Of a stretch of DNA of 64,000 bases, positions 37,707 to 51,856 are shown piece by piece. The stretch is taken from the NCBI GenBank assembly GCA_034520885.1, contig JAXHNE010000005.1, positions 77,748-141,747 of the forward strand, given 5' to 3'. The notes under the pieces were generated by a model. That model had not been told where the DNA came from, did no database searches, and saw nothing but the letters and a program-made list of their open reading frames with translations. A program made the translations under genes and the position numbers. Origin of the DNA: Candidatus Saccharimonadota bacterium (GTDB lineage: Bacteria; Patescibacteriota; Saccharimonadia; Saccharimonadales; JAXHNE01). The first letter of the stretch is position 1, and each line of letters opens with the position of its first letter.

Positions 37707-37733
37707 TATACGAAGAATAATTTAAAAGGTTAC
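37707..37733 (-). promoter_or_regulatory. cassette promoter, weak variant (CGTATACA)
   Basis: -10 at 37707-37712, -35 GTAACC at 37728-37733, N16. Fires toward the iteron array. Confidence 0.35.
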
Positions 37734-37816
37734 ATTAGTATTGTACAATGATGATTATTAATTATTTTTATTATCTTTGTAACATAAAAAATAATTGTAA
37801 TATAAAATAAGTAATT

Positions 37817-37994
37817 ATGGCAGAATTTAAAATTGGAGACGTCAGTATGTCTCAAGTCAGGTAGTGTTCCATTAACCATTGAAGAGTTATCCAATGGTAT
37901 TGCTCATGTTGTGTGGTTCAACGACAACAAGGAATTAAATAATGTGTATGTTAATGTTAAGACATTGAAGACTTACATTGAACCAAAAGACTAA
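37817..37994 (+). CDS. DUF2158/YodC-like small protein, frame broken by one extra nucleotide
   Basis: MAEFKIGDV then, after removing one nt near 37843, VCLKSGSVPLTIEELSNGIAHVVWFNDNKEL.... The span is 178 nt, not a multiple of 3. Confidence 0.55.
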
Positions 37995-38307
37995 TGAAAA
38001 ACCCAGAGGGTAACCACTCCCTCTGGGCATTACTAACCAATAAACACAATTTGTAAGGGGTCACAAGTCCCTCACGATTTGCCTGTCTAACGAACGACAG
38101 GTCTTTTGAAGTGTCTTTAAAACTGAATCGTTTCGGTATCTGGAATTCAATTGAGAATCCATTTATGACATCACCAACCCTAAAGGTATAGGTTGTATAC
38201 TGTGGCATACGGAGCACTGACCTCTTGGGAATGTATTTCAGTGGGTATAGTACTACATTCAATATCTTCACTGCTACTGGTATACTTTTGGGTTTTGTCC
38301 TTGCCAA
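37957..38307 (-). CDS. hypothetical protein
   Basis: 116-aa ORF. It is in the same frame as 38314-38862, separated only by a TAG at 38314-38316. Confidence 0.35.
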   Translation of the reverse strand: MARTKPKSIPVAVKILNVVLYPLKYIPKRSVLRMPQYTTYTFRVGDVINGFSIEFQIPKRFSFKDTSKDLSFVRQANREGLVTPYKLCLLVSNAQREWLPSGFFISLLVQCKSSMS

Positions 38308-38313
38308 GGAGTT

Positions 38314-38862
38314 CTACAACCCAGAGTTTTTTATTAAAAGTCTTCGGGGCGAACTGACTACCGTACTTATACCTATAGAAGTCCCACCAGTGTTTGTCGT
38401 TAACGCCTTGGTCATCGAATATTGTTGTTTGTATTGCTCTGCAAGGTCTTTGTTATTAATTAAAACATAGAACATTATCAGGTCTTCGACTTTAACCAGA
38501 TGTGGTCTTCCCATGCCTTTGAGGTTATCTGCACTGAGTTTACCCGTGGTATAATACCTTTGCATGGCTTCATGAGTCCCATAACATGTTTTATAGTTCA
38601 GGGCGAGGTATTTCTCGAAGTGGGACATGTCTTGGTCTCTGAGGATATCGCTACGGGTTCTAACGTAACCCACAAGGAATTCATAATTCCTGAAATCCTT
38701 ATCGTGCTCTTTCGTCCTGATGGGATGTTCACAGTCTTCATTATATTCTCTTATGAGTCTGGCATTGCAACCAGCAGCCAGTGCTTTGCGTAGACTTAGT
38801 GTGGCTGCGAGTATATTTGTTTTGGGACTGTCCCAATTGGTATTTATGTCTGTCTCCGTCAT
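38314..38862 (-). CDS. hypothetical phage protein
   Basis: 182-aa ORF preceded by the promoter cassette at 38903-38929. Confidence 0.55.
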   Translation of the reverse strand: MTETDINTNWDSPKTNILAATLSLRKALAAGCNARLIREYNEDCEHPIRTKEHDKDFRNYEFLVGYVRTRSDILRDQDMSHFEKYLALNYKTCYGTHEAMQRYYTTGKLSADNLKGMGRPHLVKVEDLIMFYVLINNKDLAEQYKQQYSMTKALTTNTGGTSIGISTVVSSPRRLLIKNSGL

Positions 38863-38902
38863 TTTTATATTGTGTTTGGTTAATATTCTTCTTGTGTTAT
38901 TA

Positions 38903-38929
38903 TATACGATGACGGCTTCGAAAGGTTAC
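38903..38929 (-). promoter_or_regulatory. cassette promoter GTAAC-N16-CGTATA
   Basis: -10 at 38903-38908, -35 at 38924-38929. Drives 38314-38862. Confidence 0.6.
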
Positions 38930-39107
38930 AGTAGCATCGTACAATGGCATAGTTTAGAATCATTGTAGATAAGCGTACAATGACTGAACTTATTTTAATT
39001 AAAAGAACCCCGTACAATCTCTTGCACGGGGTTCAGGTATTCCCCTCCAATTGTACATTACGTACAATGCTTTAATACGTTTTAGTCTCTTGGGTCTCCA
39101 GTGAACA

Positions 39108-39473
39108 TCATCTGGGGTTTTCAATATCTGTGTCCCAGATTGTCAGGAGTTGCCACTGGTTGTCATCGTTACCAGTCAGCATCTGATGTGCTTGTTTGAG
39201 ACTATACACAGATGAACTGTCTTCCATTAAAGGATGTGTTAGACCTTCCTGTGTAGTGCCGTCTTCACCGAAGACCTGAAAGCCTATTACCTTGGCATCT
39301 TCATTGAGTTCAACTGCTTCAATAACAGCGTGTAGTTGTTCATCACAGCACCATCCCACTTCTTCACCGATTTCTTCTTGGTATTCGTTATTGCGATTGG
39401 GTTTAACCCATGCTTTGACTTCAACATTATCGCTGTTGCAATTCTGGCATACATAAACTGTTTTTGTCATCAT
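39108..39473 (-). CDS. hypothetical phage protein (N-terminal CxxC)
   Basis: 121-aa ORF. Confidence 0.5.
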   Translation of the reverse strand: MMTKTVYVCQNCNSDNVEVKAWVKPNRNNEYQEEIGEEVGWCCDEQLHAVIEAVELNEDAKVIGFQVFGEDGTTQEGLTHPLMEDSSSVYSLKQAHQMLTGNDDNQWQLLTIWDTDIENPR

Positions 39474-39505
39474 AATTTCTATGTGTTTGGGTTAAATGTT
39501 TTTAA

Positions 39506-39668
39506 TTAATATAGTTCTTCATCATCGAAATCGAAATCCATTACTTCGCCCTTTGGGGTTCGAATTCGTCTTCATTGAATCTCATTAGTTCAGTGGTACT
39601 CAGGGATTCCAAGAAGGCACGATTAGTGGCTTCGTATTTGATATCATCACTTTTATACTTAGTGGACA
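39506..39668 (-). CDS. small acidic protein, one frame break
   Basis: MSTKYKSDDIKYEATNRAFLESLSTTELMRFNEDEFEPQ, then shifted to KGEVMDFDFDDEELY. The ATG overlaps the upstream stop (ATGTCCACTAA). Confidence 0.4.
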
Positions 39669-39907
39669 TTATCGGAATCGATTAATGATTCTTTACTGGA
39701 TTTCTTTGTCATAGTTTTAGGTATTAGTGTTACATTCTTATACGATTTCCACTTGGATTTGTTACGATTTATTTCACCAAACATTGTGTTTATTTGTTCC
39801 CTGACGATAATAGCGTCTTCCAGAGTCTTGCGTTCTGCAATACCCAAGGGCATTGTTTCATCATAACCTGTTTCGGTGTCTTCGATTGTTACGTATACTT
39901 TATACAT
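39659..39907 (-). CDS. hypothetical phage protein
   Basis: 82-aa ORF. Confidence 0.5.
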   Translation of the reverse strand: MYKVYVTIEDTETGYDETMPLGIAERKTLEDAIIVREQINTMFGEINRNKSKWKSYKNVTLIPKTMTKKSSKESLIDSDNVH

Positions 39908-39930
39908 GATATCTGTTTTTAATTAAAATC

Positions 39931-40137
39931 TTATTGGTTACCGCATTCATTACAGAACCCGTCATCATCACAACTCTGGAGATGCTGTCCTGATTTCTTG
40001 CATTCCTGAACGTCTTCTGATTCTTCGAAGTCTGCCCACTTGTCTTCTGGCAATGAGTGTTTCAGTACCTCATAAGGTAATCTATTCAGGAGTTCATCCA
40101 GAACCGTCTGGTCGCCATGATAATAGTCGTCCATCAA
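39931..40137 (-). CDS. hypothetical small acidic protein (C-terminal CxxC)
   Basis: 68-aa ORF. Confidence 0.45.
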   Translation of the reverse strand: MMDDYYHGDQTVLDELLNRLPYEVLKHSLPEDKWADFEESEDVQECKKSGQHLQSCDDDGFCNECGNQ

Positions 40138-40531
40138 TTGCCTTTATAACGGCATCAACCAGTTCAATCTTATCTCTGGTATCTGGTTCAGCGTTATCCA
40201 TCTGACAGAACCTCACTTCTTGGACAATGGTGTCATCAGTAAGGCGTATATTCTCAATGACATCGACATTCATTGGGAACAGGTCTTCTACGTCTCCTGT
40301 TTCGGTGTCAATTGTTTGAACACAGAGTTGGTCGTGGTCATCGAGGTCTCTGAGGATGTGTCTCGAGTTGACCAACGGTATCAATGCGTTCACCGTACAT
40401 TGGTACTTGCTGTAGTTGGCATTGCTTTGCGTACATATCTCAAACGCTTCAACGGCTTTCTGTTCACCGTGTGCGCTTAATACATTAAGGATATATTGAA
40501 TATCCATGTGAAGTTGTTTTACTTTTCCCAT
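40094..40531 (-). CDS. hypothetical phage protein
   Basis: 145-aa ORF preceded by the cassette at 40563-40589. Confidence 0.55.
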   Translation of the reverse strand: MGKVKQLHMDIQYILNVLSAHGEQKAVEAFEICTQSNANYSKYQCTVNALIPLVNSRHILRDLDDHDQLCVQTIDTETGDVEDLFPMNVDVIENIRLTDDTIVQEVRFCQMDNAEPDTRDKIELVDAVIKAIDGRLLSWRPDGSG

Positions 40532-40562
40532 TGTGTTATTTTTATTGGTTTGTGTACAATCT

Positions 40563-40589
40563 TATACGAACATTCTCTGTAAAGGTTAC
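40563..40589 (-). promoter_or_regulatory. cassette promoter GTAAC-N16-CGTATA
   Basis: -10 at 40563-40568, -35 at 40584-40589. GTACAAT motif in the leader. Confidence 0.6.
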
Positions 40590-40946
40590 ACCTTATCGGG
40601 GTTTAATACGATTTCAAGGGTCTCAGTAATGAAGTCACATCCACAATCATCACAACTGCTCATTGTATCAGGGAAGTCGTAATCCAGTCTTGTGTTTTGG
40701 CTTCCACAATGTGGACAATCAGCAACTGATTTGATTTTAAGTGGGTCTGAGTTCATTCTGACCACAGATAAGACATTCAGTACAGAAGTGTGGGGTCTTG
40801 GCATCGCAACCCGTACAATGCTTATAACTGACGTTGCTGTTTGGGTGTTCATCCATGTACTGGTTACAATAGGTATAAACAGCCGTTGCTCCTTGTTTTT
40901 CGTAGGATTTCTTTACAGGTCTGTGTAATATGTTTTAACTTTTTCA
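40586..40946 (-). CDS. zinc-ribbon protein, frame broken
   Basis: ATG 40946 follows the cassette. Cys-pair segments HCTGCDAKTPHFCTECLICGQ and CPHCGSQN...CDDCGCDF lie in different frames. Confidence 0.4.
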
Positions 40947-40973
40947 TTGGTTTGTGTTTTTGGTGTACAATCT

Positions 40974-41000
40974 TATACGAATAATATCGATTAGGGTTAC
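40974..41000 (-). promoter_or_regulatory. cassette promoter GTAAC-N16-CGTATA
   Basis: -10 at 40974-40979, -35 at 40995-41000. Confidence 0.6.
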
Positions 41001-41114
41001 AAAGGCGAATAACCATGCGATGATTAACATAGTTATTCACCTTATGTTTTGCGGTGATTAGACATTGACTCCGAGTTCCTGTAAATTGGTACTCAGGATA
41101 AGCATCACCGTGTT

Positions 41115-41555
41115 TCATTTCTCTTTGATACATTCGACATTCATTTGCAATATTGTTGCTGATACCTCGGACAATGGACGCTTGAAATTGTAATAACTGT
41201 ATGTCATTGCATCAGGTTTGCCAACCAATATACATGTCTTCATGCGCTTCTCTAATTTCTTTTGTTCCTTGGCTTTGAGAAAGTCTTCGAACAAAATGTC
41301 AATAGTATTTTCAAGACTGTTTTTAATCTTAAATGTACCATAGTCGATATCAGGTAAGGTCTTGCAATAGGCTTCTGCCTGTGCTATGACTTCATTGTCC
41401 TGTTTTGAGTTTCCTCGATCAGTCTGTGCAACCACCGTGACCATCATTTTTAACGTAGCCGACATTCTTACCACCAATATACAGGTCAGCGACAAAACAG
41501 TTAGTCTCTTCAGACATTCGTTCGCTAAATTCAACTTTTTTAATTCGATTTTCAT
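41115..41555 (-). CDS. hypothetical phage protein
   Basis: 146-aa ORF. Confidence 0.5.
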   Translation of the reverse strand: MKIELKKLNLANECLKRLTVLSLTCILVVRMSATLKMMVTVVAQTDRGNSKQDNEVIAQAEAYCKTLPDIDYGTFKIKNSLENTIDILFEDFLKAKEQKKLEKRMKTCILVGKPDAMTYSYYNFKRPLSEVSATILQMNVECIKEK

Positions 41556-41600
41556 TGTGTTATATTTTATTGGTTTTAATTAAAGTTGTTGTTATCGATT

Positions 41601-41627
41601 AAAAACTGGTTGCTATACCGCAACCAG
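41601..41627 (-). terminator. intrinsic terminator
   Basis: CTGGTTGC-GGTATA-GCAACCAG followed by T5, at the end of the GP88-family gene. Confidence 0.6.
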
Positions 41628-42457
41628 TTCTAATTTTTGTACATTGCTAACATCGGCTTTCAGTTGAGCAGGACTAATAACAAAACAACTGTTTAATACC
41701 TGTTTTTCAACTTGCCTGTTTGCAATACGTTTCCATTTTCAGACCTATTATAATACCATCGGCATCATCAACCCTATAGTCGGTAAGGTCGCCATTTACC
41801 ACGTTATAGCCACTATATTGAGCAGGTAATTCACTTTCTTTTTTGACATCGAATACCGTTGCTACATTGTGACCACGTTCAAGCATTGCTTCACATGAGT
41901 TCCAGTTCCTGCCTGTGTATGAGAGACGTTAAGTGGTAGTTAGGTGCAAGGTTATTGAATTTATTGGCGTTTTTCGTATAGTCGTAAAACTGTACATCAG
42001 GAAATATTTCGAAAATGTTTTGACCGTTAACTCTAACATTTTCCCAGTCGATATCCGAAGTACAATTTAATCTAACTGAAAAGAAATAACCATCTTTTTG
42101 TGCTTTTACCTGTTTTGCTTCGATATCAGCAATAAGCCACTGCATAAAAAATTCAGGTTGTTCATAAAACAATTTAGTTTTTTTGATACGTGCATTTAAG
42201 ATAGTGCATTTACCGCTAAACTCTTCAACGGCAACCCTACCGCTTGTATTTAAGCAACCCATACGGCATTCAGGTGTGCTATGTGAACACGTATTATAAC
42301 CACTTGTTTTGGCGGGTGCAAGGTGTAAGCCGTAGGTATACTGGTTGCTTACCTACCGCTTTTAAGCAGTTTTGCGCTTGCATTGATACTACCTAAATAG
42401 GGATAAACCTGTTTGTCTTTTTGCGTCTGCGATACTCTTAAAATTCATTGCTTTCAT
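41613..42457 (-). CDS. GP88-family phage protein, reading frame interrupted >=4 times
   Basis: Pieces in three frames read MKAMNFKSIADAKRQTGLS / YLGSINASAKLLKSG / VSNQYTYGLHLAPAKTSGYNTCSHSTPECRMGCLNTSGR... / EAMLERGHNVATVFD...VNGDLTDYRVDD. Confidence 0.6.
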
Positions 42458-42483
42458 TGTGTTATGGTTTTGGTTATGGTTAT

Positions 42484-42510
42484 TATACGAAAATAAGTTG
42501 TAATAGTTAC
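42484..42510 (-). promoter_or_regulatory. cassette promoter GTAAC-N16-CGTATAAT
   Basis: Drives the GP88-family gene (ATG 42457). Confidence 0.6.
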
Positions 42511-42576
42511 ATCTTAATTAAAATCTTTTTGGTTATTTACAATTTATTTTCGTGTGTGTCTGTGTGTGATAGTTAT

Positions 42577-42603
42577 TATACGAAAATAAGGTGTGAAAGT
42601 TAC
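42577..42603 (-). promoter_or_regulatory. cassette promoter GTAAC-N16-CGTATAAT, tandem to the previous
   Basis: No ORF before the next promoter, about 95 bp downstream. Confidence 0.5.
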
Positions 42604-42612
42604 GACCTGTGC

Positions 42613-42695
42613 TTATTTAGAACGGTTCTAAACTCAGAGTATCGGGTAGGGTTGCGATTACCGCACTGAGGTTATACCCTCCGTTGTTGTCTTAT
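42613..42695 (-). ncRNA. promoter-driven small RNA candidate, copy 1
   Basis: About 80 nt between a cassette promoter and the hairpin TTTAGAA-CCG-TTCTAAA. No ORF. Homologous to copy 2. Confidence 0.5.
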
Positions 42696-42701
42696 ACTTA
42701 T

Positions 42702-42728
42702 TATACGAAATAAATTAAAAAAGGTTAC
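42702..42728 (-). promoter_or_regulatory. cassette promoter driving small RNA copy 1
   Basis: -35 lies in the 3' arm of the hairpin AAGGTTGCG-AAAAA-CGTAACCTT. Confidence 0.6.
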
Positions 42729-42756
42729 GTTTTTCGCAACCTTTTTTAATTAAAAT

Positions 42757-43068
42757 CTAAACTTCTAATTCAAATACGCATTCCAGCATCAACTCAATTT
42801 CTTCACCCTCTGTTATCCATTTGTCGATTTGTTTCATGGTATAGCCATAAGCCATACAAGCATCAAGGATTTCACGATAACTGTAATCATCGTAGTCCAT
42901 TTCCTGCTCAAATACTTCGGTTTCCCCTGTTAAGGGGTCGATACAACGGTCTTCACGAAAAGCATATGTTTTGTCTTCAATGATTTCTTTTCGCATTTGG
43001 TTACAACTGGGGTCAGTTACTACCCAACCGTCTTGTTCCAGTTTTTTGATTTCGTCTTTTGTTGTCAT
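42757..43068 (-). CDS. hypothetical small acidic protein
   Basis: 103 aa with its own cassette and terminator. Confidence 0.55.
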   Translation of the reverse strand: MTTKDEIKKLEQDGWVVTDPSCNQMRKEIIEDKTYAFREDRCIDPLTGETEVFEQEMDYDDYSYREILDACMAYGYTMKQIDKWITEGEEIELMLECVFELEV

Positions 43069-43093
43069 TGCTTTGTGTTTTGGTTATAGTTAT

Positions 43094-43121
43094 TATACGT
43101 AAAAACCCCTGCAAAGGTTAC
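43094..43121 (-). promoter_or_regulatory. cassette promoter GTAAC-N17-CGTATAAT
   Basis: -35 lies in the loop of the CCCCTG/CAGGGG terminator hairpin. Confidence 0.65.
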
Positions 43122-43149
43122 ACTTCACAGGGGTTTTAATTAAAATCTT

Positions 43150-43365
43150 TTACTTAATCATTGGAATGTAATTCATTACTTCCAGTACTGCGTCTTCATC
43201 TTCCTCTGAAAGGTCAACGCTGAATACGTCTTCTGACTTGTCACAGGGTTGAACATCAAATTGCCAATCACTGTTTTTATCCTGCAACCATTTCTGAATT
43301 TCTTTTGCTGCTTCGAGCGGACTATCCGCATCGACTTCGATTTCCAATACTACTCTGTTTGTCAT
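43150..43365 (-). CDS. hypothetical small acidic protein
   Basis: 71 aa with its own cassette. Confidence 0.55.
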   Translation of the reverse strand: MTNRVVLEIEVDADSPLEAAKEIQKWLQDKNSDWQFDVQPCDKSEDVFSVDLSEEDEDAVLEVMNYIPMIK

Positions 43366-43393
43366 AATTTTTGTGTGTTTTGGTTATAGTTAT

Positions 43394-43420
43394 TATACGA
43401 TATTAATTAAAAAAGGTTAC
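43394..43420 (-). promoter_or_regulatory. cassette promoter GTAAC-N16-CGTATAAT
   Basis: Drives 43150-43365. Confidence 0.65.
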
Positions 43421-43427
43421 GTTTTAA

Positions 43428-43459
43428 ATAAAAAAACCCCCGTGTAACCAGCACGGGGG
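43428..43459 (-). terminator. intrinsic terminator
   Basis: CCCCCGTG-CTGGTTA-CACGGGGG followed by T7. Confidence 0.8.
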
Positions 43460-43504
43460 CATAACCCATAACCATAAATCACAATCAAATATTTTAAATT
43501 TCGT

Positions 43505-43825
43505 CTACAACGGCTCGGAAACCACCTTCATCTTCTCTATACATTTGGAGTTTGGGTGAAAAACTCTTACAAGATGACCGTTTATTTGTGTGTAGTATCC
43601 GAAGTAACTACCGTCTGTTAGAATATCGGTTTTATTTTTCTTTAAATACGTTATAAAATCTTCTTCTTTGTCTCCAAGTGGATAACCAGTTTCGTGTTCG
43701 ACTTTCAATTCGCTGAACGGAATTGTTCTCGGACTCAGATTCTTTGTGGTTTTGGTTATCCTGATAGCGAATCTACCAAAGGGTTCTAACTTGAATTCCT
43801 GTGATTTTGTTAATGTGATTTCCAT
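43505..43825 (-). CDS. hypothetical phage protein
   Basis: 106 aa with its own cassette and a strong terminator. Confidence 0.55.
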   Translation of the reverse strand: MEITLTKSQEFKLEPFGRFAIRITKTTKNLSPRTIPFSELKVEHETGYPLGDKEEDFITYLKKNKTDILTDGSYFGYYTQINGHLVRVFHPNSKCIEKMKVVSEPL

Positions 43826-43850
43826 CGCTTTGTGTTTTGGTTATAGTTAT

Positions 43851-43877
43851 TATACGAATAATTTCAGTCAGGGTTAC
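43851..43877 (-). promoter_or_regulatory. cassette promoter GTAAC-N16-CGTATAAT
   Basis: Drives 43505-43825. Confidence 0.65.
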
Positions 43878-43923
43878 ACACCCATGAGTTTTAATTTTTG
43901 ACCTGAATTAAATGGGTCATAAA

Positions 43924-44082
43924 TTACAGGTCTTTGTCATCATCGAAGTTCTGTTCTAAGTATGAACTATCAATAGTAAACATTCCACCTGATTGCTCAT
44001 GCTTAAAAACGGACATTGATACTTCTGCCTTTGTGTCGGGGTCTGTTACTGTGATTTCCTGTACGAATTTTGCTGTGTTCAT
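43924..44082 (-). CDS. hypothetical small protein
   Basis: 52 aa (MNTAKFVQEITVTDPDTKAEV...). Below the ORF-track cutoff. Confidence 0.4.
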   Translation of the reverse strand: MNTAKFVQEITVTDPDTKAEVSMSVFKHEQSGGMFTIDSSYLEQNFDDDKDL

Positions 44083-44104
44083 TGCTTTGTGTTTTAATTA
44101 AAAC

Positions 44105-44353
44105 TTAACTATGATAATCAATTCCATCGGTATTCATACCTGTACAATCGGCTTTCTTTTCATAGTCCAGAAGAAATGACCAATGCATTGCAGGTAGTTC
44201 TTCATCATTCTGTGCTTTGAAATAATCAGGCACGGAATAATAGGTTGTTTCTTCACACTCTACAATTTCTTCGTAGGTGCTTGATTGGTCGATACCATTA
44301 CCTGTTTCGGTTGGCACGACTGCTACTCTTAAATCTCTTAAGTCTGGGTTCAT
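44105..44353 (-). CDS. hypothetical small acidic protein
   Basis: 82 aa with its own cassette. Confidence 0.55.
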   Translation of the reverse strand: MNPDLRDLRVAVVPTETGNGIDQSSTYEEIVECEETTYYSVPDYFKAQNDEELPAMHWSFLLDYEKKADCTGMNTDGIDYHS

Positions 44354-44709: not shown

Positions 44710-44712
44710 GGT

Positions 44713-45275: not shown

Positions 45276-45300
45276 TGTGTTTGGTTTTGGTTATAGTTAT

Positions 45301-45327: not shown

Positions 45328-45630
45328 GTTTTTAACCTGATTTGATTTTCATAAATAAAACCCTCATCATTCTCATTGTCGTAAAACTCCAAATCGTTAG
45401 CCACAAATACAGGAATATTACCATGCCAATCGTAAACTGGTGAGGCTTTGCAGTATGTTCTGGTCACCCTTACAATAACAATTGGATAGGGTTTATGTCT
45501 TGCGCCATTGTCGGGATGAATCGTTCTGACATCCAGAACCTCACCCTCACGCCATTCGTTAAGGTTCTCATTTCTGGGGTTGTTGATTAACACCTCAACG
45601 ACATCACCCTTTATAATTTTTTAGTTTCAT
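45324..45630 (-). CDS. hypothetical protein, frame break near the start
   Basis: ATG 45630 gives MKLKNYKG, then an extra G, then DVVEVLINNPRNENLNEW.... Confidence 0.45.
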
Positions 45631-45655
45631 TGTGTTTGGTTTTGGTTATAGTTAT

Positions 45656-45682
45656 TATACGAAAAAACCCTGCAAAGGTTAC
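45656..45682 (-). promoter_or_regulatory. cassette promoter GTAAC-N16-CGTATAAT
   Basis: -35 lies in the CCCTG/CAGGG hairpin. Confidence 0.65.
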
Positions 45683-45800
45683 AGGGTTTTTAATTAAAAT
45701 CTATATATTATTCTCATATTATTTTATCTATAGTGTGTCTTAGGGCGAACCTTTGTTTAGCGTTTCCATCGTTTACGGTTTTAATTAAAATCTCTATACA

Positions 45801-46007
45801 TTAGTCTTCTCTGACTTCGACATTATCTGCATCGACTTCGAATGCTTCTCCGCATTGGTCTTCGACAATCACCGTGCCACGGGATTCCAGAATACCATCT
45901 TTTACAATGATTCCGACAAAACTGTGATTATGCATATCACTTTTTCTGGGTGCTCCGACTTCAACTGTTTGGAATTCTTCGAGTAGTGTGCCTGTTTTTT
46001 CTAACAT
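45801..46007 (-). CDS. hypothetical small protein
   Basis: 68 aa. Confidence 0.5.
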   Translation of the reverse strand: MLEKTGTLLEEFQTVEVGAPRKSDMHNHSFVGIIVKDGILESRGTVIVEDQCGEAFEVDADNVEVRED

Positions 46008-46025
46008 GATTTTTGGTTTTAATGA

Positions 46026-46238
46026 TTATACGATATAGAACATTGTTGTTTCAGTGAATTGTTCACTAACTACGATTTTTGTCAGACCCACATTTTCGTT
46101 TTCCACTGGTGAAATGAAGCCATTTTCTGCCCTATCACTTAACGCTGATAAAGTGTTTTCAACAACTTCTTTAATCTCTTCGTCATCAGTGATTTTGTTG
46201 TCGAATTCAAGACTAACTACTAATTGAATTGTTTTCAT
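46026..46238 (-). CDS. hypothetical small acidic protein
   Basis: 70 aa. Confidence 0.5.
   Translation of the reverse strand: MKTIQLVVSLEFDNKITDDEEIKEVVENTLSALSDRAENGFISPVENENVGLTKIVVSEQFTETTMFYIV
46027..46052 (-). promoter_or_regulatory. cassette promoter variant GAAAC-N15-CGTATAAT
   Basis: The -10 overlaps the upstream stop (ATC GTA TAA). Confidence 0.45.
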
Positions 46239-46264
46239 GATTTCTGTGTTTTGGTTATAGTTAT

Positions 46265-46291
46265 TATACGAACAATATCTGAAAAGGTTTC
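46265..46291 (-). promoter_or_regulatory. cassette promoter variant GAAACC-N16-CGTATAAT
   Basis: Drives 46026-46238. Confidence 0.55.
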
Positions 46292-46365
46292 AGTTTATGG
46301 ACATTATATCAATAAAAAACCCCACAATATTGTTGCAGGGTTTTGTTTAGGACATTGTGTTGTTG

Positions 46366-47250
46366 TTAATCCTCAACTCTTTTGATGATGAACAATAACG
46401 TCTTTACCCTTGTATCTTTGTAGGGAAACTTAACCACAATCTCATAACCTGCATTGCTGTTAACTAAAAAGTTAACCAAGTCATTTGTTACTTCTGCCCC
46501 AGTTGGTTCTTTACCAGCATAACAGTTTTTGATATACTTATTACTATAACTGTTCATGCGGAGCGAATGATTTAAAACCCTGTCATTTTCTGATAGTGTT
46601 AAGGTAATGTACCCACCTTTTTTAACTAAATTGCGTTTCATCACATCATTGATTTCATCATAAAAAGTGTCGATGAAACCGCAGTAATCCAAAATAGCAC
46701 TACTATATGTGTCTTCGGCATCATTCACAATATGTTCACCAACGGTTTTGTTACGTAGTGGAAATAACTGAATCAAATAACTTGTCATTAGCCGTCAGAT
46801 TCCTAACCATTTCCTTATAGGTTTCTTTGTCACGTTCAACCGCAGTGAATTTATAACCACTTTTTTGTTTGAGGATGTTTTTCTCCATTATCCATTCAGC
46901 AGCAGGTAAGGTCAGGATATTACTACTTTGCCGTTTGGTTAACATAATTGATTCAGCAATTAATTGCCTTGCCTTATCTTTGGCTTTTCCATGATAATTA
47001 CTAAAAGTGTTTTTTGCTTCTTTTAACACGTTTTACTGGCTTCTTAGGTGCTTTTTTGGTTGTTGTCCCGTTTGCGGAATTAAGTGCTCTGGCTATCGCA
47101 TTTACTTGCCTAAATGAAGGCAAACCAAGAAGTTCAGCCAATTCGTTGTTGTCCATACTATCATAGTTTTCAATAATAGTATCAATCATTTTAGTTGTTC
47201 TGCCGTCAGTTAATTTAACGCCTTTGTACTTTTCAATTGTCTGTTGTCAT
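46366..47250 (-). CDS. ~295-aa protein in >=4 frame pieces (weak methyltransferase-like resemblance)
   Basis: ORFs 47001-47189, 46751-47029 and 46366-46788 overlap end to end. ATG 47250 follows the cassette. Confidence 0.35.
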
Positions 47251-47297
47251 GGTGTTTGTGATTTTGGTTAAACAATTTGTTTGTTGGTTATGGTTAT

Positions 47298-47324
47298 TAT
47301 ACGACACACACACGCAAAGGTTAC
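47298..47324 (-). promoter_or_regulatory. cassette promoter GTAAC-N16-CGTATAAT
   Basis: Drives the gene starting at 47250. Confidence 0.6.
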
Positions 47325-47356
47325 ACTATATGAAATATAATTTTAATTAAAACGAG

Positions 47357-47438
47357 TTATTTAGAACCATTCTAAACTCAGGATATAAGGTAGGGTCGGA
47401 TTACCGCACTGAGATTTTACTCTCCGTTGTTGTTGTTA
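47357..47438 (-). ncRNA. promoter-driven small RNA candidate, copy 2
   Basis: Shares CTCAGTGCGGTAATC, CCCTACC and CTGAGTTTAGAA. Helix GAGA/TCTC here corresponds to GAGG/CCTC in copy 1. Confidence 0.5.
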
Positions 47439-47444
47439 TACTTA

Positions 47445-47471
47445 TTATACGCAGAAATAAAAAAAAGGTTA
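47445..47471 (-). promoter_or_regulatory. cassette promoter driving small RNA copy 2
   Basis: -35 lies in the hairpin GGTTGCA-GAAA-TGTAACC. Confidence 0.6.
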
Positions 47472-47508
47472 CATTTCTGCAACCCTTTTTTAATTAAAAT
47501 CTTAATTC

Positions 47509-47838
47509 TTAATATGCTCTTGACGGCATTCTCTGGTTCTGTTCGTAACTCTGGCTCTCCCATTCGCTGTCGGGATTAGTGAGTTCAAAGAAATACTTGC
47601 GCAGTTGTTCAGCGATTTCATCGAGTTCCTTACAAACGCTTTCTTCAACGAATGACTGGTTGGCTCTAACTGTGTCGCTACTGCATACTCTGCCCAGCAT
47701 TCCACCACCTAAGTAGTTTTGATACGCTGACATTTTCTCGCCTTCAAAACCCAGTGTGTCGAGACTGATTTCAATTCCACCACCACGACCACCGATTTCC
47801 TGTCTTAATACGATTTCTTCAAAGTTAATGGTTTCCAT
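47509..47838 (-). CDS. hypothetical phage protein
   Basis: 109 aa with its own cassette. Confidence 0.55.
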   Translation of the reverse strand: METINFEEIVLRQEIGGRGGGIEISLDTLGFEGEKMSAYQNYLGGGMLGRVCSSDTVRANQSFVEESVCKELDEIAEQLRKYFFELTNPDSEWESQSYEQNQRMPSRAY

Positions 47839-47864
47839 TGTGTTAATGTTTTGGTTATAGTTAT

Positions 47865-47891
47865 TATACGTGTTTTAATTAAAAAGGTTAC
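47865..47891 (-). promoter_or_regulatory. cassette promoter GTAAC-N16-CGTATAAT
   Basis: Drives 47509-47838. Confidence 0.65.
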
Positions 47892-47892
47892 G

Positions 47893-48036
47893 TTAATTAA
47901 GACGTATTTCAAATATGTTTTCATTGCTGATAAACAAATACTTTGGATTGGTTTTGGCTTTGTACTCCCTAACATCTTCTTGTGTTGGCGGGTGACCTAA
48001 CATCTTTTCGAGTTTCTTAAATTCATAGAGGTTCAT
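47893..48036 (-). CDS. hypothetical small protein
   Basis: 47 aa, MNLYEFKKLEKMLGHPPTQEDVREY.... Confidence 0.35.
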   Translation of the reverse strand: MNLYEFKKLEKMLGHPPTQEDVREYKAKTNPKYLFISNENIFEIRLN

Positions 48037-48096
48037 GTCTTTAGTATTTTAATTACTTATACGTAAATACTCTGAAAACATTGAATTCTGAAATGG

Positions 48097-48124
48097 AAAA
48101 ACCCCCGTGTAACCAGCACGGGGG
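48097..48124 (-). terminator. intrinsic terminator (same hairpin as 43437-43459)
   Basis: CCCCCGTG-CTGGTTA-CACGGGGG followed by T5. Confidence 0.75.
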
Positions 48125-48169
48125 CAACCATGAATTAACTAAAACGACTACTAACTATGAATAATATTT

Positions 48170-48358
48170 TTATCTATTTGTAAACTCTTCCCACAACGCA
48201 TCGGGGTCAATTTCCTGTGTCAGGTCGCCACCTGTTCTTAATATGATGAACTTGGCGAAGTTAATGCGTTTAGTTGCTTCATCTCCATTTGTGTGAGATA
48301 TTATCTCCTGTGCGTCACTGAGGTGCGACATTACTACCATGCTTGCTTTCATTATCAT
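48170..48358 (-). CDS. hypothetical small protein
   Basis: 62 aa with its own cassette and a strong terminator. Confidence 0.5.
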   Translation of the reverse strand: MIMKASMVVMSHLSDAQEIISHTNGDEATKRINFAKFIILRTGGDLTQEIDPDALWEEFTNR

Positions 48359-48384
48359 TGCTTTGTGGTTTTGGTTATAGTTAT

Positions 48385-48411
48385 TATACGGATTCAGATT
48401 AAAAAGGTTAC
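48385..48411 (-). promoter_or_regulatory. cassette promoter GTAAC-N16-CGTATAAT
   Basis: Drives 48170-48358. Confidence 0.65.
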
Positions 48412-48412
48412 A

Positions 48413-48678
48413 CTACATCCAACCTTTTTTGAAATTGGTTTTCTCTTCTATCCAGTCCATTATTTTTTCTGCGTAATAGTATGAAGTCAGTTCTTCGAGA
48501 AATCTCTTATTTGACTTACTACGCCATATTCTTCAGTTGTTGTTGTTCCTTGTTTTACAACTTCTTTGGTGTTGTAGTCCAGTGCCTTTATCTGAATTAC
48601 TTTTACCTTTTATATCAATTCGGATAATTCCACCTATTGCGTATTCTCCGATTTTAAAACTCTTTGTCGCTTGTGCCA
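48413..48678 (-). CDS. hypothetical protein, frame broken
   Basis: MAQATKSFKIGEYAIGGIIRIDIKGK ... RFLEELTSYYYAEKIMDWIEEKTNFKKGWM. Confidence 0.4.
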
Positions 48679-48704
48679 TTGCTCTGTGGTTTTGGTTATA
48701 GTTA

Positions 48705-48731
48705 TTATACGTACATTAGTTAAAAAGGTTA
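48705..48731 (-). promoter_or_regulatory. cassette promoter GTAAC-N16-CGTATAAT
   Basis: Drives the gene starting at 48678. Confidence 0.65.
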
Positions 48732-48733
48732 CA

Positions 48734-48955
48734 CTACATCCAACCCTGTTCAATTATAACAGGTTTTCTCTTGTAATTAAAACCCCAGACTTCTCTCCAT
48801 TCACCCCACTCTCCACGTCTTGAACGAAATACAGTCACCTGCTTATCGGGTGCTTGTTCAATGAGTTCAGATAGTCTTGATTTCAATTCCGCATAGGTCG
48901 GAAACGGTTTCCATTCCTTGCCTACTACTGCTGTGGGTTTTGTCATTCGTGCCAT
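48734..48955 (-). CDS. hypothetical small protein
   Basis: 73 aa, ending in GWM like its neighbour. Confidence 0.5.
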   Translation of the reverse strand: MARMTKPTAVVGKEWKPFPTYAELKSRLSELIEQAPDKQVTVFRSRRGEWGEWREVWGFNYKRKPVIIEQGWM

Positions 48956-48982
48956 TGCTTTGTGGTTATTGGTTATAGTTAT

Positions 48983-49009
48983 TATACGTGTTTTAATTAA
49001 AAAGGTTAC
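48983..49009 (-). promoter_or_regulatory. cassette promoter GTAAC-N16-CGTATAAT
   Basis: Drives 48734-48955. Confidence 0.65.
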
Positions 49010-49010
49010 A

Positions 49011-49252
49011 TTAAACGTAATGATAATGCCACGCTAAAAAACCCTGCCTGTCCATATAAAACGCTGTAACATGATAATGATATTTGTCTTTACTGAATAA
49101 ATTGGTTCTAATATATTCTAAGGCATTTTCCACGGATTCAACCCTGTCGCTTTGCCGTCATCACCAGTCCAGTGTGAATTATTCTGAGTTAAGACCAAAT
49201 ATTTATTGGTTCTTGTGCTACGAATTGCGACCTTATGATACTTTGCTGTCAT
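49011..49252 (-). CDS. hypothetical protein, one frame break
   Basis: MTAKYHKVAIRSTRTNKYLVLTQNNSHWTGDDGKATG, then shifted to ESVENALEYIRTNLFSKDKYHYHVTAFYMDRQGF. Confidence 0.4.
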
Positions 49253-49264
49253 GGTACATTGTGG

Positions 49265-49450
49265 TTATTGGTTTTGAATATCATCAACAATCTTTTGTTG
49301 TATCTTTATTGCCCTGCATATAGCGAAGAACGGCATACCTTTGAGTTTCTTCATTTTATGAAGTTCAGATAGGACATTAACAGCGGTTTCGAGTTTATTA
49401 CCACTTGCTTTTGCAATAGTCAGTGTCGATATTATTGCGGTTGCGTTCAT
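49265..49450 (-). CDS. hypothetical small protein
   Basis: 61 aa from ATG 49450, just after the cassette. The ORF-track start at 49537 reads through the promoter. Confidence 0.45.
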   Translation of the reverse strand: MNATAIISTLTIAKASGNKLETAVNVLSELHKMKKLKGMPFFAICRAIKIQQKIVDDIQNQ

Positions 49451-49477
49451 GGTACATTGTGTTTTGGTTATAGTTAT

Positions 49478-49505
49478 TATACGTATAAATACAAAAAAAG
49501 GTTGC
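49478..49505 (-). promoter_or_regulatory. cassette promoter variant GCAACC-N17-CGTATAAT
   Basis: Drives the gene starting at 49450. Confidence 0.5.
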
Positions 49506-49543
49506 GTTTTACACAACCTTTTTTTAATTAAAATCATTTCTTT

Positions 49544-49878
49544 TTACACGTGACCACCAGACTTTACGGTTTCCATTACATCTGCTAGAGTTCTGGACAA
49601 TGGTTCGAAGTGCATATCTCTCTCAATACCCAAACCGAACATACCCCTAAAATCCTTCAACTCCTGCATTGATACAGTACCACATTCAGCATCTTCGGGA
49701 TAACCCAATGTTGCAAAACACATATAAACATCATCATCGAGTTTTTCGTACAAATACCATGTGCTTGCACCTGCGGGATAAAAGATTTCATGACAATTTT
49801 AATATCCTTTGCGGACTTCTGACTTGTGTCGCCTTGCTTTGCAAATGCTTTTTCGATTTCTTTGGTTATTAGTTTCAT
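49544..49878 (-). CDS. DUF2958-family protein, one frame break
   Basis: MKLITKEIEKAFAKQGDTS...KIVMKSF, then shifted to WYLYEKLDDDVYMCFATLGYPEDAECGTVSMQELKDFRGMFGLGIERDMHFEP. Confidence 0.6.
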
Positions 49879-49904
49879 TGTGTTTATGTTTTCGTTATAG
49901 TTCT

Positions 49905-49931
49905 TATACGGTTTTAATTAAAAAAGGTTAC
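49905..49931 (-). promoter_or_regulatory. cassette promoter GTAAC-N16-CGTATAAG
   Basis: Drives the DUF2958 gene. Confidence 0.6.
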
Positions 49932-50377
49932 ATTATTCGCTCATTTCTCCAATATATTGAAACATTCCCAATAAGGTGACAAAATATATGATTTCCCCAT
50001 GTAAAATATAATCCGAGGTTAACGCCATTATGAATAAGAGGTTTTGTGATTTTCTCAATCTCAAACATACCGATATTTGGAAAACTTTTCGTTTTTCCTT
50101 TCCCCTCATTAATTAAATGAAGTAAAACATCTTTGGCGTTATTAAAATCGGGTGTTGTTTTGGTTTCTTTTCCATAACAACCAACACTATATCTAAGAGT
50201 ATAACCCATTTTATTAACATCACCACGGGGCGAAGCCAATTCTTTTGCATCACAAAGAAAATCAACACCATCAAATCTATCAATGGTTATATAATGCACA
50301 TCATTTAACTCACTGAAAGTAATTACACCTTTGTTAATTAAATCTGAATGTTTGGTTTTAAAATATTCTAATGTCAT
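49928..50377 (-). CDS. hypothetical phage protein
   Basis: 149 aa with its own cassette. Confidence 0.55.
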   Translation of the reverse strand: MTLEYFKTKHSDLINKGVITFSELNDVHYITIDRFDGVDFLCDAKELASPRGDVNKMGYTLRYSVGCYGKETKTTPDFNNAKDVLLHLINEGKGKTKSFPNIGMFEIEKITKPLIHNGVNLGLYFTWGNHIFCHLIGNVSIYWRNERIM

Positions 50378-50402
50378 GGTTTTGCGTTTTGGTTATACTT
50401 AT

Positions 50403-50429
50403 TGTACGTATTTTAATTAAAAAGGTTAC
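50403..50429 (-). promoter_or_regulatory. cassette promoter variant GTAAC-N16-CGTACAAT
   Basis: Drives 49928-50377. Confidence 0.55.
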
Positions 50430-50493
50430 GTTTTATGGACATTATTTTAATTAAAACCATGAACATTATCACCCTGTTATTATGGACATTGCC

Positions 50494-51176
50494 CTATGCT
50501 GTTTGGCGAAGGCTTTGCAGTTGTTCCCTCAACTTGGTTTTACACCTGTTTATAGTTGCTTTAACTGTTCCCAAAGGTATATCAAGTGCAGCACATATTT
50601 CTTCATGACTTAATTTCCTTAAAAAGAACATTGTGGCAATCTTTCTTTGTTTCGCTGAAAGACTACGAAACGCCTCGGCTATGTTTTTACGACTTTCCTC
50701 GGACATCATGTTATCATCGGCTTGTATTGACGTTTGTTGCTCAAACATTGGCTTACCTTTATCATCGACATAATCATCGGTATTCAAATAACGGTCTGCG
50801 TGTTCGGTTCTATGATGGTCAATAACAACGTTTTTCGCAATATGGTATAACCACGTATTGAGTTTAGCAACATTAACATCATAGTTCTGTAAATGCTTTA
50901 TACATTTTCTAAAAACCTCACTTGTTAAATCTTCGGCAACCTCGGTTTCTCCCCTCCAACTCTCGGCAATATGTAGTAAAATATCTGCTTGTTATACTTT
51001 GTGTATATCTCGCTTATCTCATTTTCTTTTGTGCCGTTTTTCGCAATGTTCCAACTCTGACGTAAACAAGTGCTAAACATTTCCATTGTCCTGACTTCCT
51101 GAGCCTTATAGAATTTCCATGCTCTTCTCATTATCAATGACTTGTTGTAGTTGGCTACCAATTTTCTGTTTTTCAT
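50494..51176 (-). CDS. ECF-type (group 4) sigma-70 family factor, frame broken at a C4 run (50951-50954)
   Basis: Region 2 reads EIYTKYNKQIFYYILPRVGG / ETEVAEDLTSEVFRKCIKHLQNYD...LNTWLYHIAKNVVIDHHR. Region 4 reads LSAKQRKIATMFFLRKLSHEEICAALDIPLGTVKATINRCKTKLR. Confidence 0.7.
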
Positions 51177-51319
51177 AGCATATAAAATTAATGGTTAATA
51201 ATTGTGTCGCTTTGTTATTTCTACGCAGGGTTACAAAAAATGTTTCGTTTTTCAAGTTTTTTTTGTTATTTATAATGATTAAAAATAACAAGTGGATGCG
51301 AAAATAAATGCGATTCACT

Positions 51320-51346
51320 ATAACTTTTTTAATTAATCCACGTACA
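51320..51346 (+). promoter_or_regulatory. plus-strand cassette variant ATAAC-N16-CGTACA
   Basis: Leader TCTATAACCAACACACACACGACC, then ATG 51375. Confidence 0.5.
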
Positions 51347-51374
51347 CATATCTATAACCAACACACACACGACC

Positions 51375-51775
51375 ATGACAGCCGAAACCCTAAGTAATAA
51401 AAAGATAGTTGAACACATTAAATATGGTAATGGCACAAAAACAGTTTGCGTTTCGACTTGCTTAAACTATTTGGGTATTGCTCCAGACCAATACAGATAC
51501 ACTTCATCAAATAGAAATATGACCGCTTATATTAATGTATTTGAGAAAAACAGGTTATGCAGTTAGAAGCCGAATAACGAGAGTTTAAGGTAAAGAAATA
51601 TAATACCACCATGACAGCACTAAAAGCCGAAATTAAACGGTCAAAATACACTAAAACAGACTTATTTATTGTTAGTGGAGTGCAACAAAAATCTGCACAC
51701 CTTATGATATTAAACGGTAACGGAGAAACTGTAATAGATACCGCACCCAAAAGAAATGGCGCATACGTGCTGTAA
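51375..51775 (+). CDS. hypothetical protein, frame broken
   Basis: MTAETLSNKKIVEHIKYGNGTKTVCVSTCLNYLGI... continues in other frames to ...NGNGETVIDTAPKRNGAYVL. Confidence 0.4.
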
Positions 51776-51829
51776 ATCAAGTATTTAAGAATTAATTTGT
51801 AAAATAAATGAAAATAAATACGAATTAAT

Positions 51830-51856
51830 GTAACTATTTTCATTTATCCACGTAAT
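51830..51856 (+). promoter_or_regulatory. plus-strand cassette GTAAC-N16-CGTAATAAT
   Basis: Drives the ATG at 51907. Confidence 0.55.

Follow-up and report, generated by a model that had tools for sequence, protein, structure and literature searches.

Phage sigma factors that redirect the host core RNA polymerase to phage-specific promoters are well established. In phage phiEco32, early genes are transcribed via sigma-70, and middle and late genes via gp36 at AATGTA promoters, with the help of gp79 (PMC12276001). The SigW promoters of Bacillus subtilis carry a CGTA −10 and the sequence tGAAACnTTTt, which includes a stimulatory T-tract (PMC5758882). In T4-like phages, composite terminator-promoter repeats known as PeSLs flank single small open reading frames (ORFs) in a plastic region (PMC2839356, PMC4122927). 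Here we analyse a stretch of 64,000 nucleotides (the window; positions 77,748 to 141,747 of contig JAXHNE010000005.1, forward strand) that bears a likeness to each of these systems: a bipartite cassette with the core GTAAC-N16-CGTATAAT recurs in it beside a gene for a sigma factor of the extracytoplasmic function (ECF) type. Judged from the sequence, the cassettes are probably ECF-class bipartite promoters, read by the host core polymerase together with this phage-encoded ECF-type sigma factor. All coordinates are those of the window unless a relative is named, and minus-strand sites are cited by their higher coordinate.

A bipartite cassette repeated in the phage-like part of the window

The window is a composite of bacterial DNA of ∼50% GC (positions 1–37,164) and, from ∼37.2 kb to its end, phage-like DNA of ∼36% GC, in which small ORFs without assigned function are densely packed, for the most part on the minus strand. 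Every catalogued cassette sits in the 36% GC part. Allowing at most one mismatch, the core GTAAC-N16-CGTATAAT was matched 22 times in the window versus 0.12 expected, and none of 100 shuffled sequences reached this number. An unsupervised dyad scan of 37.2–64 kb ranked GTAAC-N16-CGTAT at the top (22 observed versus 0.08 expected). A position weight matrix (PWM) trained on the exact cassette sites returned 25 high-scoring sites, where shuffled sequence gave 0–2; no high-scoring site was found in the bacterial part (1–37 kb) or between 50.5 and 62.2 kb. Promoters of the sigma-70 type (TTGACA/TATAAT) were not in excess in the region (78 versus 73.8 expected).

With weaker members included, the catalogue comprises 26 sites on the minus strand (37733 to 50429) and four on the plus strand. 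The two blocks are 16 nt apart in 26 sites, 17 nt in three (49505, 45034 and 43121) and 15 nt in one (46052), and all 30 sites have AAC in the −35 and CGTA in the −10. The −35 consensus is GTAACcTTTt, with the T-tract adjoining the −35. The spacer sequence varies freely despite its strict 16-nt length, a combination that sigma-type recognition of two elements would predict. The leaders consist of 58% A, 25% C, 4% G and 12% T, none of 20 contained a Shine–Dalgarno (SD)-like word, and the ATG lies 17–31 nt (mostly 23–25) past the last T of the −10.

Most of this anatomy had been anticipated in a sequence-only reading of the same DNA. Its spacings (mostly 16 nt, three of 17 and one of 15) and its C/A-rich, G-poor leaders without an SD agree with the catalogue, and the enrichment of the element held in the dyad scan, the PWM scan and the shuffles alike. 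The ECF hallmarks are likewise present: AAC in the −35, CGT in the −10, a distance of 16–17 nt and a T-tract beside the −35 (PMC5758882). Of the 25 minus-strand and four plus-strand copies that it counted, the plus-strand number stands and the minus-strand number becomes 26. Two cassettes in which it had placed the upstream stop codon inside the promoter were found at just those coordinates, at 45299–45327 (stop codon 45324–45326 within the −35; 16-nt spacer) and at 46025–46052, a weak cassette of the form GAAAC-N15-CGTATAAT (stop codon 46026–46028 within the −10).

Terminators and a palindrome associated with the cassettes

The same reading had described a GC hairpin as often present, which proved true of a minority: a strong GC hairpin followed by a T-run accompanies only ∼10 of the 26 minus-strand cassettes, and the remainder have no convincing terminator. 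It had also put the −35 of several cassettes in the loop or 3′ arm of such a hairpin, with the U-tract as promoter spacer, and this arrangement occurs in six. The −35 forms the 3′ arm of the hairpin at 49476–49505 (GCAAC-N17-CGTATAAT; hairpin 49492–49526) and at 42700–42728 (N16; 42713–42751), and lies in the 3′ arm at 47444–47472 (N16; 47460–47491). It lies in the loop at 44377–44405 (N16; ∼44387–44421, with a T6 tract as spacer) and at 43092–43121 (N17; ∼43103–43136), and within the hairpin at ∼45663–45691 in the cassette at 45654–45682 (N16). In all six, the T-run of the terminator is also the promoter spacer. Two further cassettes have a separate terminator upstream, those at 46263–46291 (GAAAC-N16-CGTATAAT; terminator 46316–46344) and 43392–43420 (N16; strong terminator 43436–43460).

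Cassettes outside the terminator-bearing group have at most weak A/T hairpins derived from the palindrome TTTAATTAAA. This palindrome occurs 20 times versus 0.49 expected (38994–50455 and 63710). It is found after stop codons, upstream of hairpins and inside promoter spacers, as in the cassette at 48981–49009 (N16), and also at gene junctions that lack a promoter (for example 44093, 41575 and 39918). Candidate roles are the provision of stop codons in several frames, a bend or A/T element, and a protein site.

An ECF-type sigma factor gene beside the cassettes

The gene at 50494–51176 (minus strand) was recognised as an ECF-type sigma factor gene with Pfam and with TIGR02937 applied to homologues, in line with the earlier assignment of this ORF. 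It is interrupted by a +1 frameshift in a G-run at ∼50951–50954, a break located by means of the homologues P0002–P0011, which are 37–74% identical to the window sigma. A truncated annotation of the same protein (P0001, 162 aa) is on record, and therefore the frameshift was already present in the deposited sequence. Once repaired, the protein matches Sigma70_r2 (5.7e-12, residues 63–124) and Sigma70_r4_2 (9.6e-9, residues 164–215) and no other region in Pfam; regions 1.1 and 3 are absent from it, while they are present in the adjacent bacterial RpoD. The intact homologues P0002, P0004 and P0008 score 90–98 bits on TIGR02937 (sigma70-ECF), for which the cutoff is 42.9. Equivalog cutoffs were not reached for SigW (PRK09641, 91.8 versus 209), TIGR02948 (88.6 versus 243) or the SigM family (90.9 versus 148). 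On these profile scores the protein is classed as an ECF-type sigma factor that belongs to no named subgroup.

An N-terminal extension of ∼45 aa precedes region 2 (window 51040–51176; NKSxIMxRAWKxFK..EVRTMEMF..CLRQSWNIAKNG). It is kept in P0002, P0003 and P0005–P0009 and is absent from P0004, P0010 and the sigma of the relative L004; it lies outside the standard ECF fold and has no Pfam match. The next gene downstream of the sigma gene (49928–50377) carries its own cassette, and a non-homologous gene occupies that position in the close relative L089. No anti-sigma domain was recognised beside the sigma gene; the L089 gene at this position had no PHROG match, and the window ORF itself was not scanned.

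Besides the 30 catalogued sites, a variant promoter, GAAAC-N16-CGTAGA (GAAAC-N16-CGTAGAAA in full), stands before the sigma gene at 51218–51246 on the minus strand and is possibly autoregulatory. An element of the form GAAAC/GCAAC-TTTTTTGTAAC-N5-CGTA.A is found upstream of sigma in the window and in L089, L207, L186, L104, L213 and L215. From its sequence it would fit a weaker ECF-type promoter, compatible with positive autoregulation.

Five other sigma genes are preceded by TTTG-N18-20-TAnnTTTG, the −33/−7 promoter type of the Bacteroidota primary sigma: those of L004 (6941–6971, minus strand), L085 (9899–9930), both paralogues of L101 (7530 and 10928) and L211 (350). This pattern has 22 matches in 174 kb of family DNA versus 7.7 expected, and 5 of the 22 fall within ∼100 nt upstream of a sigma gene, positions that make up ∼0.5% of the sequence. 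In the phage part of the window such promoters are not enriched and none precedes the sigma gene, so that a step driven by the host sigma-A is deduced from the relatives only. The TTTG/TAnnTTTG elements before sigma genes, with the A/C-rich leaders lacking an SD, suggest a Bacteroidota host and a two-step cascade; the host is probably a member of the Bacteroidota.

The pairing of sigma gene and cassettes recurs in related phages

A search of related phages for the same pairing, proposed in the sequence-only reading, found it in all of the contigs collected by sigma alone and in many larger viral contigs. Seven contigs found by sigma homology alone (L085, L089 and L211–L215) formed an unbiased sample. 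Their sigma factors are 37–74% identical to that of the window and their GC content is 26–35%, and all seven carry the same bipartite element, beginning directly downstream of the sigma gene. They range from L085 (17.4 kb, 26% GC, sigma 37% identical) to L089, a 16-kb contig whose sigma is 74% identical and which, closely related and syntenic, has intact genes and at least 23 cassettes. IMG/VR was also scanned with TGTAAC-N16-CGTATAATA. Among the matches listed there were chance singletons and arrays of 5–13 sites per ∼10 kb on contigs of 30–365 kb, and sigma homologues lay inside the fetched stretches of at least eight such loci (L104, L186, L201, L207, L101 with two, L157, L108 and L117).

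Across genomes of 26–37% GC, the two short blocks stay constant while the flanks and the sequence after the −10 diverge. In the lineage of P0005–P0007 the consensus has drifted to GAAAC and CGTATACT, as against GTAAC and CGTATAAT in the window. The promoter type is common to a broad set of uncultured phages, and the description of the regulon as phage-private was accordingly too narrow. We found no description of this sigma/promoter pair in the literature on crAss-like, Saccharibacteria or huge phages.

Two generalisations were considered and dropped. A correspondence of the recognition-helix residues INR with GTAAC, and of ISR/IYR with GAAAC, was suggestive, but it holds in one clade only and L215 and L101 do not fit. 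The crAss-like phage cr10_1, whose sigma is ∼30% identical, has no enriched GTAAC/CGTAT dyad in the 40 kb around its sigma gene, and for this reason the dyad was not retained as a general crAss-like feature.

Cassette-driven genes, a non-coding RNA and mosaic blocks

The typical cassette drives one small ORF of 40–180 aa. The first unit past the sigma gene has its cassette at 50401–50429 (GTAAC-N16-CGTACAAT) and contains a 149-aa ORF; the next, at 49903–49931 (GTAAC-N16-CGTATAAG), drives a DUF2958 homologue. Further minus-strand cassettes with a 16-nt spacer lie at 48704–48732, 48383–48411, 47863–47891, 47296–47324 and 43849–43877, and one with 17 nt at 45005–45034. The cassette at 42575–42603 (N16) is followed by a short CA-repeat leader, with no ORF before the next cassette, at 42482–42510 (N16), which drives a frameshifted gene of the GP88 family. 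GTAAC-N16-CGTATAAG recurs at 40972–41000 and 40561–40589. Three weaker cassettes complete the minus-strand series: GTAACA-N16-CGTATAAG inside or at the end of an ORF (39737–39765), GTAAC-N16-CGTATATA before a 182-aa ORF (38901–38929) and, as the last, GTAAC-N16-CGTATACA (37705–37733), which points into ORF-less ATTGTCC/ATTGTAC repeats.

Two of the four plus-strand sites are variants, ATAAC-N16-CGTACACA at 51320–51348, which drives a frameshifted 161-aa homologue, and GTAAC-N16-CGTAATAA at 51830–51858, which drives a 205-aa ORF (51907–52524). The other two are canonical. The cassette at 62248–62276 drives a frameshifted gene that is likely DUF2227-like, a label that rests on visual inspection of its N-terminal motif, MPNGRTHD, and on the presence of a DUF2227 gene in L085. 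The cassette at 62738–62766 is followed by a structured leader of ∼165 nt, with the ATG at 62931. This leader (62767–62930) contains a long hairpin (arms 62853–62865 and 62904–62916), has no Rfam match and may be a regulatory 5′ untranslated region. When ten intact proteins of L089 were scanned against PHROGs, only the DUF932 and GP88 proteins matched, both belonging to families of unknown function.

Two cassettes drive copies of a non-coding RNA of ∼85 nt that contains no ORF. Both copies are on the minus strand, at about 47355–47443 (cassette 47472) and 42612–42699 (cassette 42728). Aligned copies exist in L089 (6730–6840 and 10775–10885), L004 (2594–2708) and L176 (5699–5814), and a third L089 cassette, at 5549, shares the start of the RNA. 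The block CCTACC..ATA..CTGAGTTTAGA...TCTAAATAA is invariant among the copies, and their terminal hairpin is conserved. Against Rfam at a relaxed threshold the region matched no family, the best score being that of Bacteroidetes FopS (22 bits versus a gathering score of 56). Since the cassettes drive conserved non-coding RNAs, the element is tied to transcription and not to translation.

Comparison of window 41580–51834 with L089 661–11895 showed blocks of 77–89% nucleotide identity, between which single genes are replaced, inserted or missing (for example window 49938–50374 versus L089 2030–2441, and window 45064–45639 versus L089 8280–8437). Of 16 ends of syntenic blocks, 13 fall within 60 nt of a cassette centre, where ∼28% would be expected from the density of cassettes. 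Because near-identical repeats flank single genes, the cassettes would act as joints for the swap, gain and loss of genes among related phages.

A proposed two-step cascade and its alternatives

From the observed motif, the identity of the sigma factor and the co-occurrence of the two, we infer the initiating holoenzyme, the transcription start sites, the timing and the host, and propose a cascade of two steps. In some lineages the sigma gene would be transcribed first, from a Bacteroidota-type promoter of the host sigma-A; in the lineage of the window it would be transcribed from the weaker GAAAC-N16-CGTAGA promoter, perhaps with positive autoregulation. The sigma factor would then switch on ∼30 units through a promoter grammar of a −35 (T)GTAACC, a T-tract, a 16-nt spacer and an extended −10 CGTATAAT(A). 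Most of these units would be one small gene with a short (∼17–19 nt), A/C-rich leader lacking an SD, and two of them would be the copies of the small non-coding RNA. In about one-third, a terminator hairpin is joined to the promoter, so that ∼45 nt would serve both to end one transcript and to begin the one that follows. Insulated, individually terminated single-gene units, as the sequence-only reading had it, thus describe about a third of the units and overstate the case for the rest. Its label of early genes is unlikely to apply if a sigma factor made by the phage is required; delayed-early or middle expression would fit better.

Several observations weigh against this cascade. The weaker promoter upstream of sigma leaves the first round of sigma expression unexplained, and in the distant lineages L157 and L117 the sigma gene itself stands behind a canonical cassette, an arrangement that calls either for autoregulation, the first sigma molecules coming from elsewhere, or for a different reader of the cassette. 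The core motif is almost unchanged across sigma factors only 25–40% identical, a constancy that a conserved host factor would also explain, and no clean covariation was seen between a residue of the recognition helix and a base of the −35. The −10 contains a perfect TATAAT, which a TATAAT-reading primary sigma could use if the host were not a member of the Bacteroidota. The sigma gene is frameshifted in this window. Finally, the IMG/VR loci were picked with the motif itself, and their consensus is therefore biased.

The near-invariance of the core, the L157 and L117 sigma genes behind canonical cassettes and the generic ECF-class character of the motif are what would be expected if an ECF or other alternative sigma of the host read the cassettes and the phage sigma had other targets, such as late genes outside the window. 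We consider this unlikely: cassettes begin directly downstream of the sigma gene in every sigma-bearing contig, the consensus shifts between lineages (GAAAC/CGTATACT versus GTAAC/CGTATAAT), and dependence of ∼30 genes on a stress-induced host sigma would be fragile. The adjacent bacterial DNA also has no cassette, though that DNA is probably not the host's. A primary sigma of the host might instead read the TATAAT within the −10, with GTAACC as an activator or UP-like site, most plausibly in a Saccharibacteria host; the neighbouring Saccharibacteria genes do use TGnTATACT/TATAAT boxes, the phage DNA is contiguous with the Saccharibacteria chromosome and one relative was binned in a Patescibacteria metagenome-assembled genome (MAG). 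Yet the invariant CG at −14/−13 does not stand where an extended −10 would have its TG, and the Saccharibacteria genes look leaderless and show no −35, in contrast to the fixed −35 and the ∼20-nt leaders of the cassettes. There is no enrichment of sigma-70-type promoters, in relatives the sigma gene stands behind promoters of the Bacteroidota type, and the Bacteroidota sigma-A is not known to use TATAAT. Relatives also reach 365 kb, implausibly large for phages of epibionts with ∼1-Mb genomes, and we regard this possibility as decidedly improbable.

The recombination pattern raises another possibility, that the cassettes are mainly PeSL-like recombination or mobility modules and their promoter-like appearance is secondary. 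Cassettes delimit the replaced genes and the indels that distinguish the window from L089, and PeSLs are a documented precedent (PMC2839356, PMC4122927). A role as joints is, however, compatible with promoter function, PeSLs being themselves promoters and terminators, and the retention of short blocks across 26–37% GC while the flanks diverge indicates selection for recognition by a protein rather than for length of homology, which makes this account very unlikely. Less likely still, in our estimation, would be recognition of the ∼45-nt element by a phage-encoded or virion-delivered RNA polymerase of the crAss-like, N4-like or T7-like kind. The conserved stretch is indeed very long (CGTATAATAACTATAACCAAAAC), and the sigma has its best database matches among crAss-like phages, a group equipped with a virion polymerase. 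A pair of short invariant blocks set at a fixed distance, with free sequence between them, is nevertheless the signature of a sigma factor and not of a single-block polymerase promoter; the region downstream of the −10 varies among relatives while the two blocks stay, no polymerase gene was seen in the fetched DNA, and cr10_1 lacks the dyad.

Origin of the window and state of this copy of the phage

The bacterial part of the window encodes ArgS, glutamate dehydrogenase, CapA, DnaG, RpoD, polyprenyl synthetase, PolA, Fpg and an ABC-F protein, as well as rpsO, which was read from the junction sequence. Its RpoD is full-length, with regions r1.1, r1.2, r2, r3 and r4 in Pfam. PolA is 61–69% identical to PolA of dozens of Candidatus Saccharibacteria (TM7) MAGs, and positions 1–37164 are a segment of a Candidatus Saccharibacteria chromosome. 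Many genes in this part look leaderless, with a TGnTATACT/TATAAT box 6–8 nt before the ATG and no visible −35.

The switch from bacterial to phage-family DNA is abrupt and falls in 37165–37350, within ∼150 nt of the rpsO stop codon. Motifs of the phage family extend to ∼37.3 kb (TTATTTAGAATGA and the word TTTTTGCCAGAATCGTTTTT, which resembles the TTTTTCCAGAATTTTTT repeats at 52.9 kb and in L085). At 37165–37350 neither an integrase nor a tRNA nor an obvious attachment (att) repeat was found, and the whole window yielded no tRNA. At least 12 frameshifts were detected in the phage part relative to intact L089 proteins, affecting among others the genes for the sigma, the DUF2958 homologue, a 288-aa protein, the GP88 protein and the 161-aa protein; examples between 37200 and 52000 are at 50951–50954, 51308–51792, 49774–49789, 46760–47065 and 41683–41927. 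They are confined to the phage part, and long bacterial ORFs (up to 885 aa) are intact throughout. This suggests a low-quality consensus or a decaying or defective copy in this window.

The join of phage DNA to the Saccharibacteria chromosome is probably an assembly chimera, the explanation that we favour; a public Saccharibacteria MAG contig thus probably holds a chimeric join to phage DNA. Were the join genuine, this would be a ∼100-kb phage or prophage of the candidate phyla radiation (CPR)/Patescibacteria with its own ECF sigma and a private grammar of promoters and leaders, in a host whose own genes, leaderless and with extended −10 boxes, follow another grammar. The deposited source is one continuous 145-kb contig labelled Candidatus Saccharibacteria, and the binning of one relative in a Patescibacteria MAG points the same way. 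We nonetheless think both the genuine join and the contrast of grammars that it implies quite unlikely, given the jump in GC from 50% to 36%, the Bacteroidota-type promoters before the sigma gene in relatives, relatives of up to 365 kb, a junction that has neither integrase nor att site, and the restriction of frameshifts to the phage part.

Neither megablast nor sensitive blastn matched the phage part to any of 50,697 phage records, the exact cassette 23-mer had none in 185,579 species-representative genomes, and Rfam returned nothing credible on the whole window. Four non-coding or cassette-free features were also noted in this part. Downstream of the last cassette, the ORF-less stretch 37330–37700 holds ∼13 irregularly spaced copies of ATTGTCC, ATTGTAC or AATGTCC and may be an array of binding sites, for example at a genome end, a packaging site or a regulator site. 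Words of the ATTGTCC type also lie just upstream of the −35 at 50429, 46291, 38929 and 37733; in L004 and L085 they occur around +1 (TAATGTAC). Repeated TTTTTCCAGAATTTTTT words with G-rich and C-rich tracts occupy the non-coding region 52760–53000, a candidate replication origin or genome terminus; the position of these repeats upstream of the sigma region is kept in the 26% GC relative L085 (∼9300–9700). Many family members also carry the recurrent motif TTATTTAGAAT(G/C)A.TA.AAAT in the non-coding DNA that lies upstream of their sigma region (window 52690–52720, 51270–51290 and 37340–37360; also L004, L207, L211, L213, L214 and L085). Finally, 53500–62200 is a minus-strand block of tightly packed small ORFs, several apparently frameshifted. 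Its GC skew is strongly negative, and none of the records in the phage collection resembles it. It contains no cassettes, as the sequence-only reading had noted and the PWM scan confirmed; the separate temporal class that this reading gave it is a conjecture.

Significance and comparison with known systems

If the proposed cascade is correct, a group of large uncultured phages, seemingly widespread and with Bacteroidota as their probable hosts, possesses a compact sigma/promoter pair, and the sequence itself reveals a simple transcription cascade of two steps. The locus would also be a natural example of a terminator that overlaps the promoter after it to the fullest extent and, after T4-type PeSLs, a second, independent case of regulatory cassettes serving as joints for the shuffling of single genes. 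An orthogonal ECF sigma with ∼30 graded natural promoters would be an expression toolkit for organisms whose promoters are not of the E. coli type.

The closest described phage regulon is that of phiEco32. As with gp36 (PMC12276001), the window encodes a two-domain phage sigma, with a sigma-2-like and a sigma-4-like domain, that would work with the host core at phage-specific promoters. In phiEco32 the early genes, presumably including that of gp36, use the host primary sigma, a cascade similar to the one proposed here. However, gp36 is a distant sigma homologue, its promoters are characterised mainly by an AATGTA with its centre at −11.5, and it requires gp79 as a cofactor; in the window, the protein is a bona fide member of the ECF superfamily, the promoter is bipartite (AAC/CGT), no gp79-like partner was identified and the host is probably a member of the Bacteroidota.

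In their sequence the cassettes are nearest to the promoters of B. subtilis SigW, SigX, SigM and SigV (PMC5758882), with which they share the AAC of the −35, the CGT(A) of the −10, the 16–17 nt between them and the T-tract (tGAAACnTTTt versus GTAACCTTTTT). SigW and SigM are also the best sub-threshold profile matches of the phage sigma, which is an equivalog of none of these factors (92 bits versus cutoffs of 209–243). Unlike the B. subtilis systems, the locus has an extended −10, CGTATAAT(A), no evident anti-sigma gene and a phage gene array in place of an envelope-stress regulon.

With the PeSLs of T4-like phages (PMC2839356, PMC4122927) the cassettes share their composite terminator-promoter build around single small ORFs without known function in a plastic region, and the way in which the repeats delimit the places where close relatives differ. 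PeSL promoters are early promoters of the host sigma-70, whereas the cassettes are ECF-type, presumably dependent on the phage sigma, and have no TTGACA-type −35; in six units, unlike in PeSLs, the terminator hairpin physically contains the −35. T4-like genes were not observed alongside the cassettes.

Among curated phages, the best matches of the sigma are those of crAss-like phages (cr10_1, cr50_1, cr118_1 and others; 26–32% identity), which have ∼100-kb genomes, presumed Bacteroidota hosts and a sigma gene among small genes; this sigma identity of 26–32% is the sole link of the window phage to Crassvirales. Two features of the locus are thus of already known kinds, the regulon of a phage sigma and the composite terminator-promoter cassette. 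What is new is the sigma family, the extended CGTATAAT −10, the nesting of the −35 in a terminator hairpin and the wide range of uncultured phages in which the system occurs.

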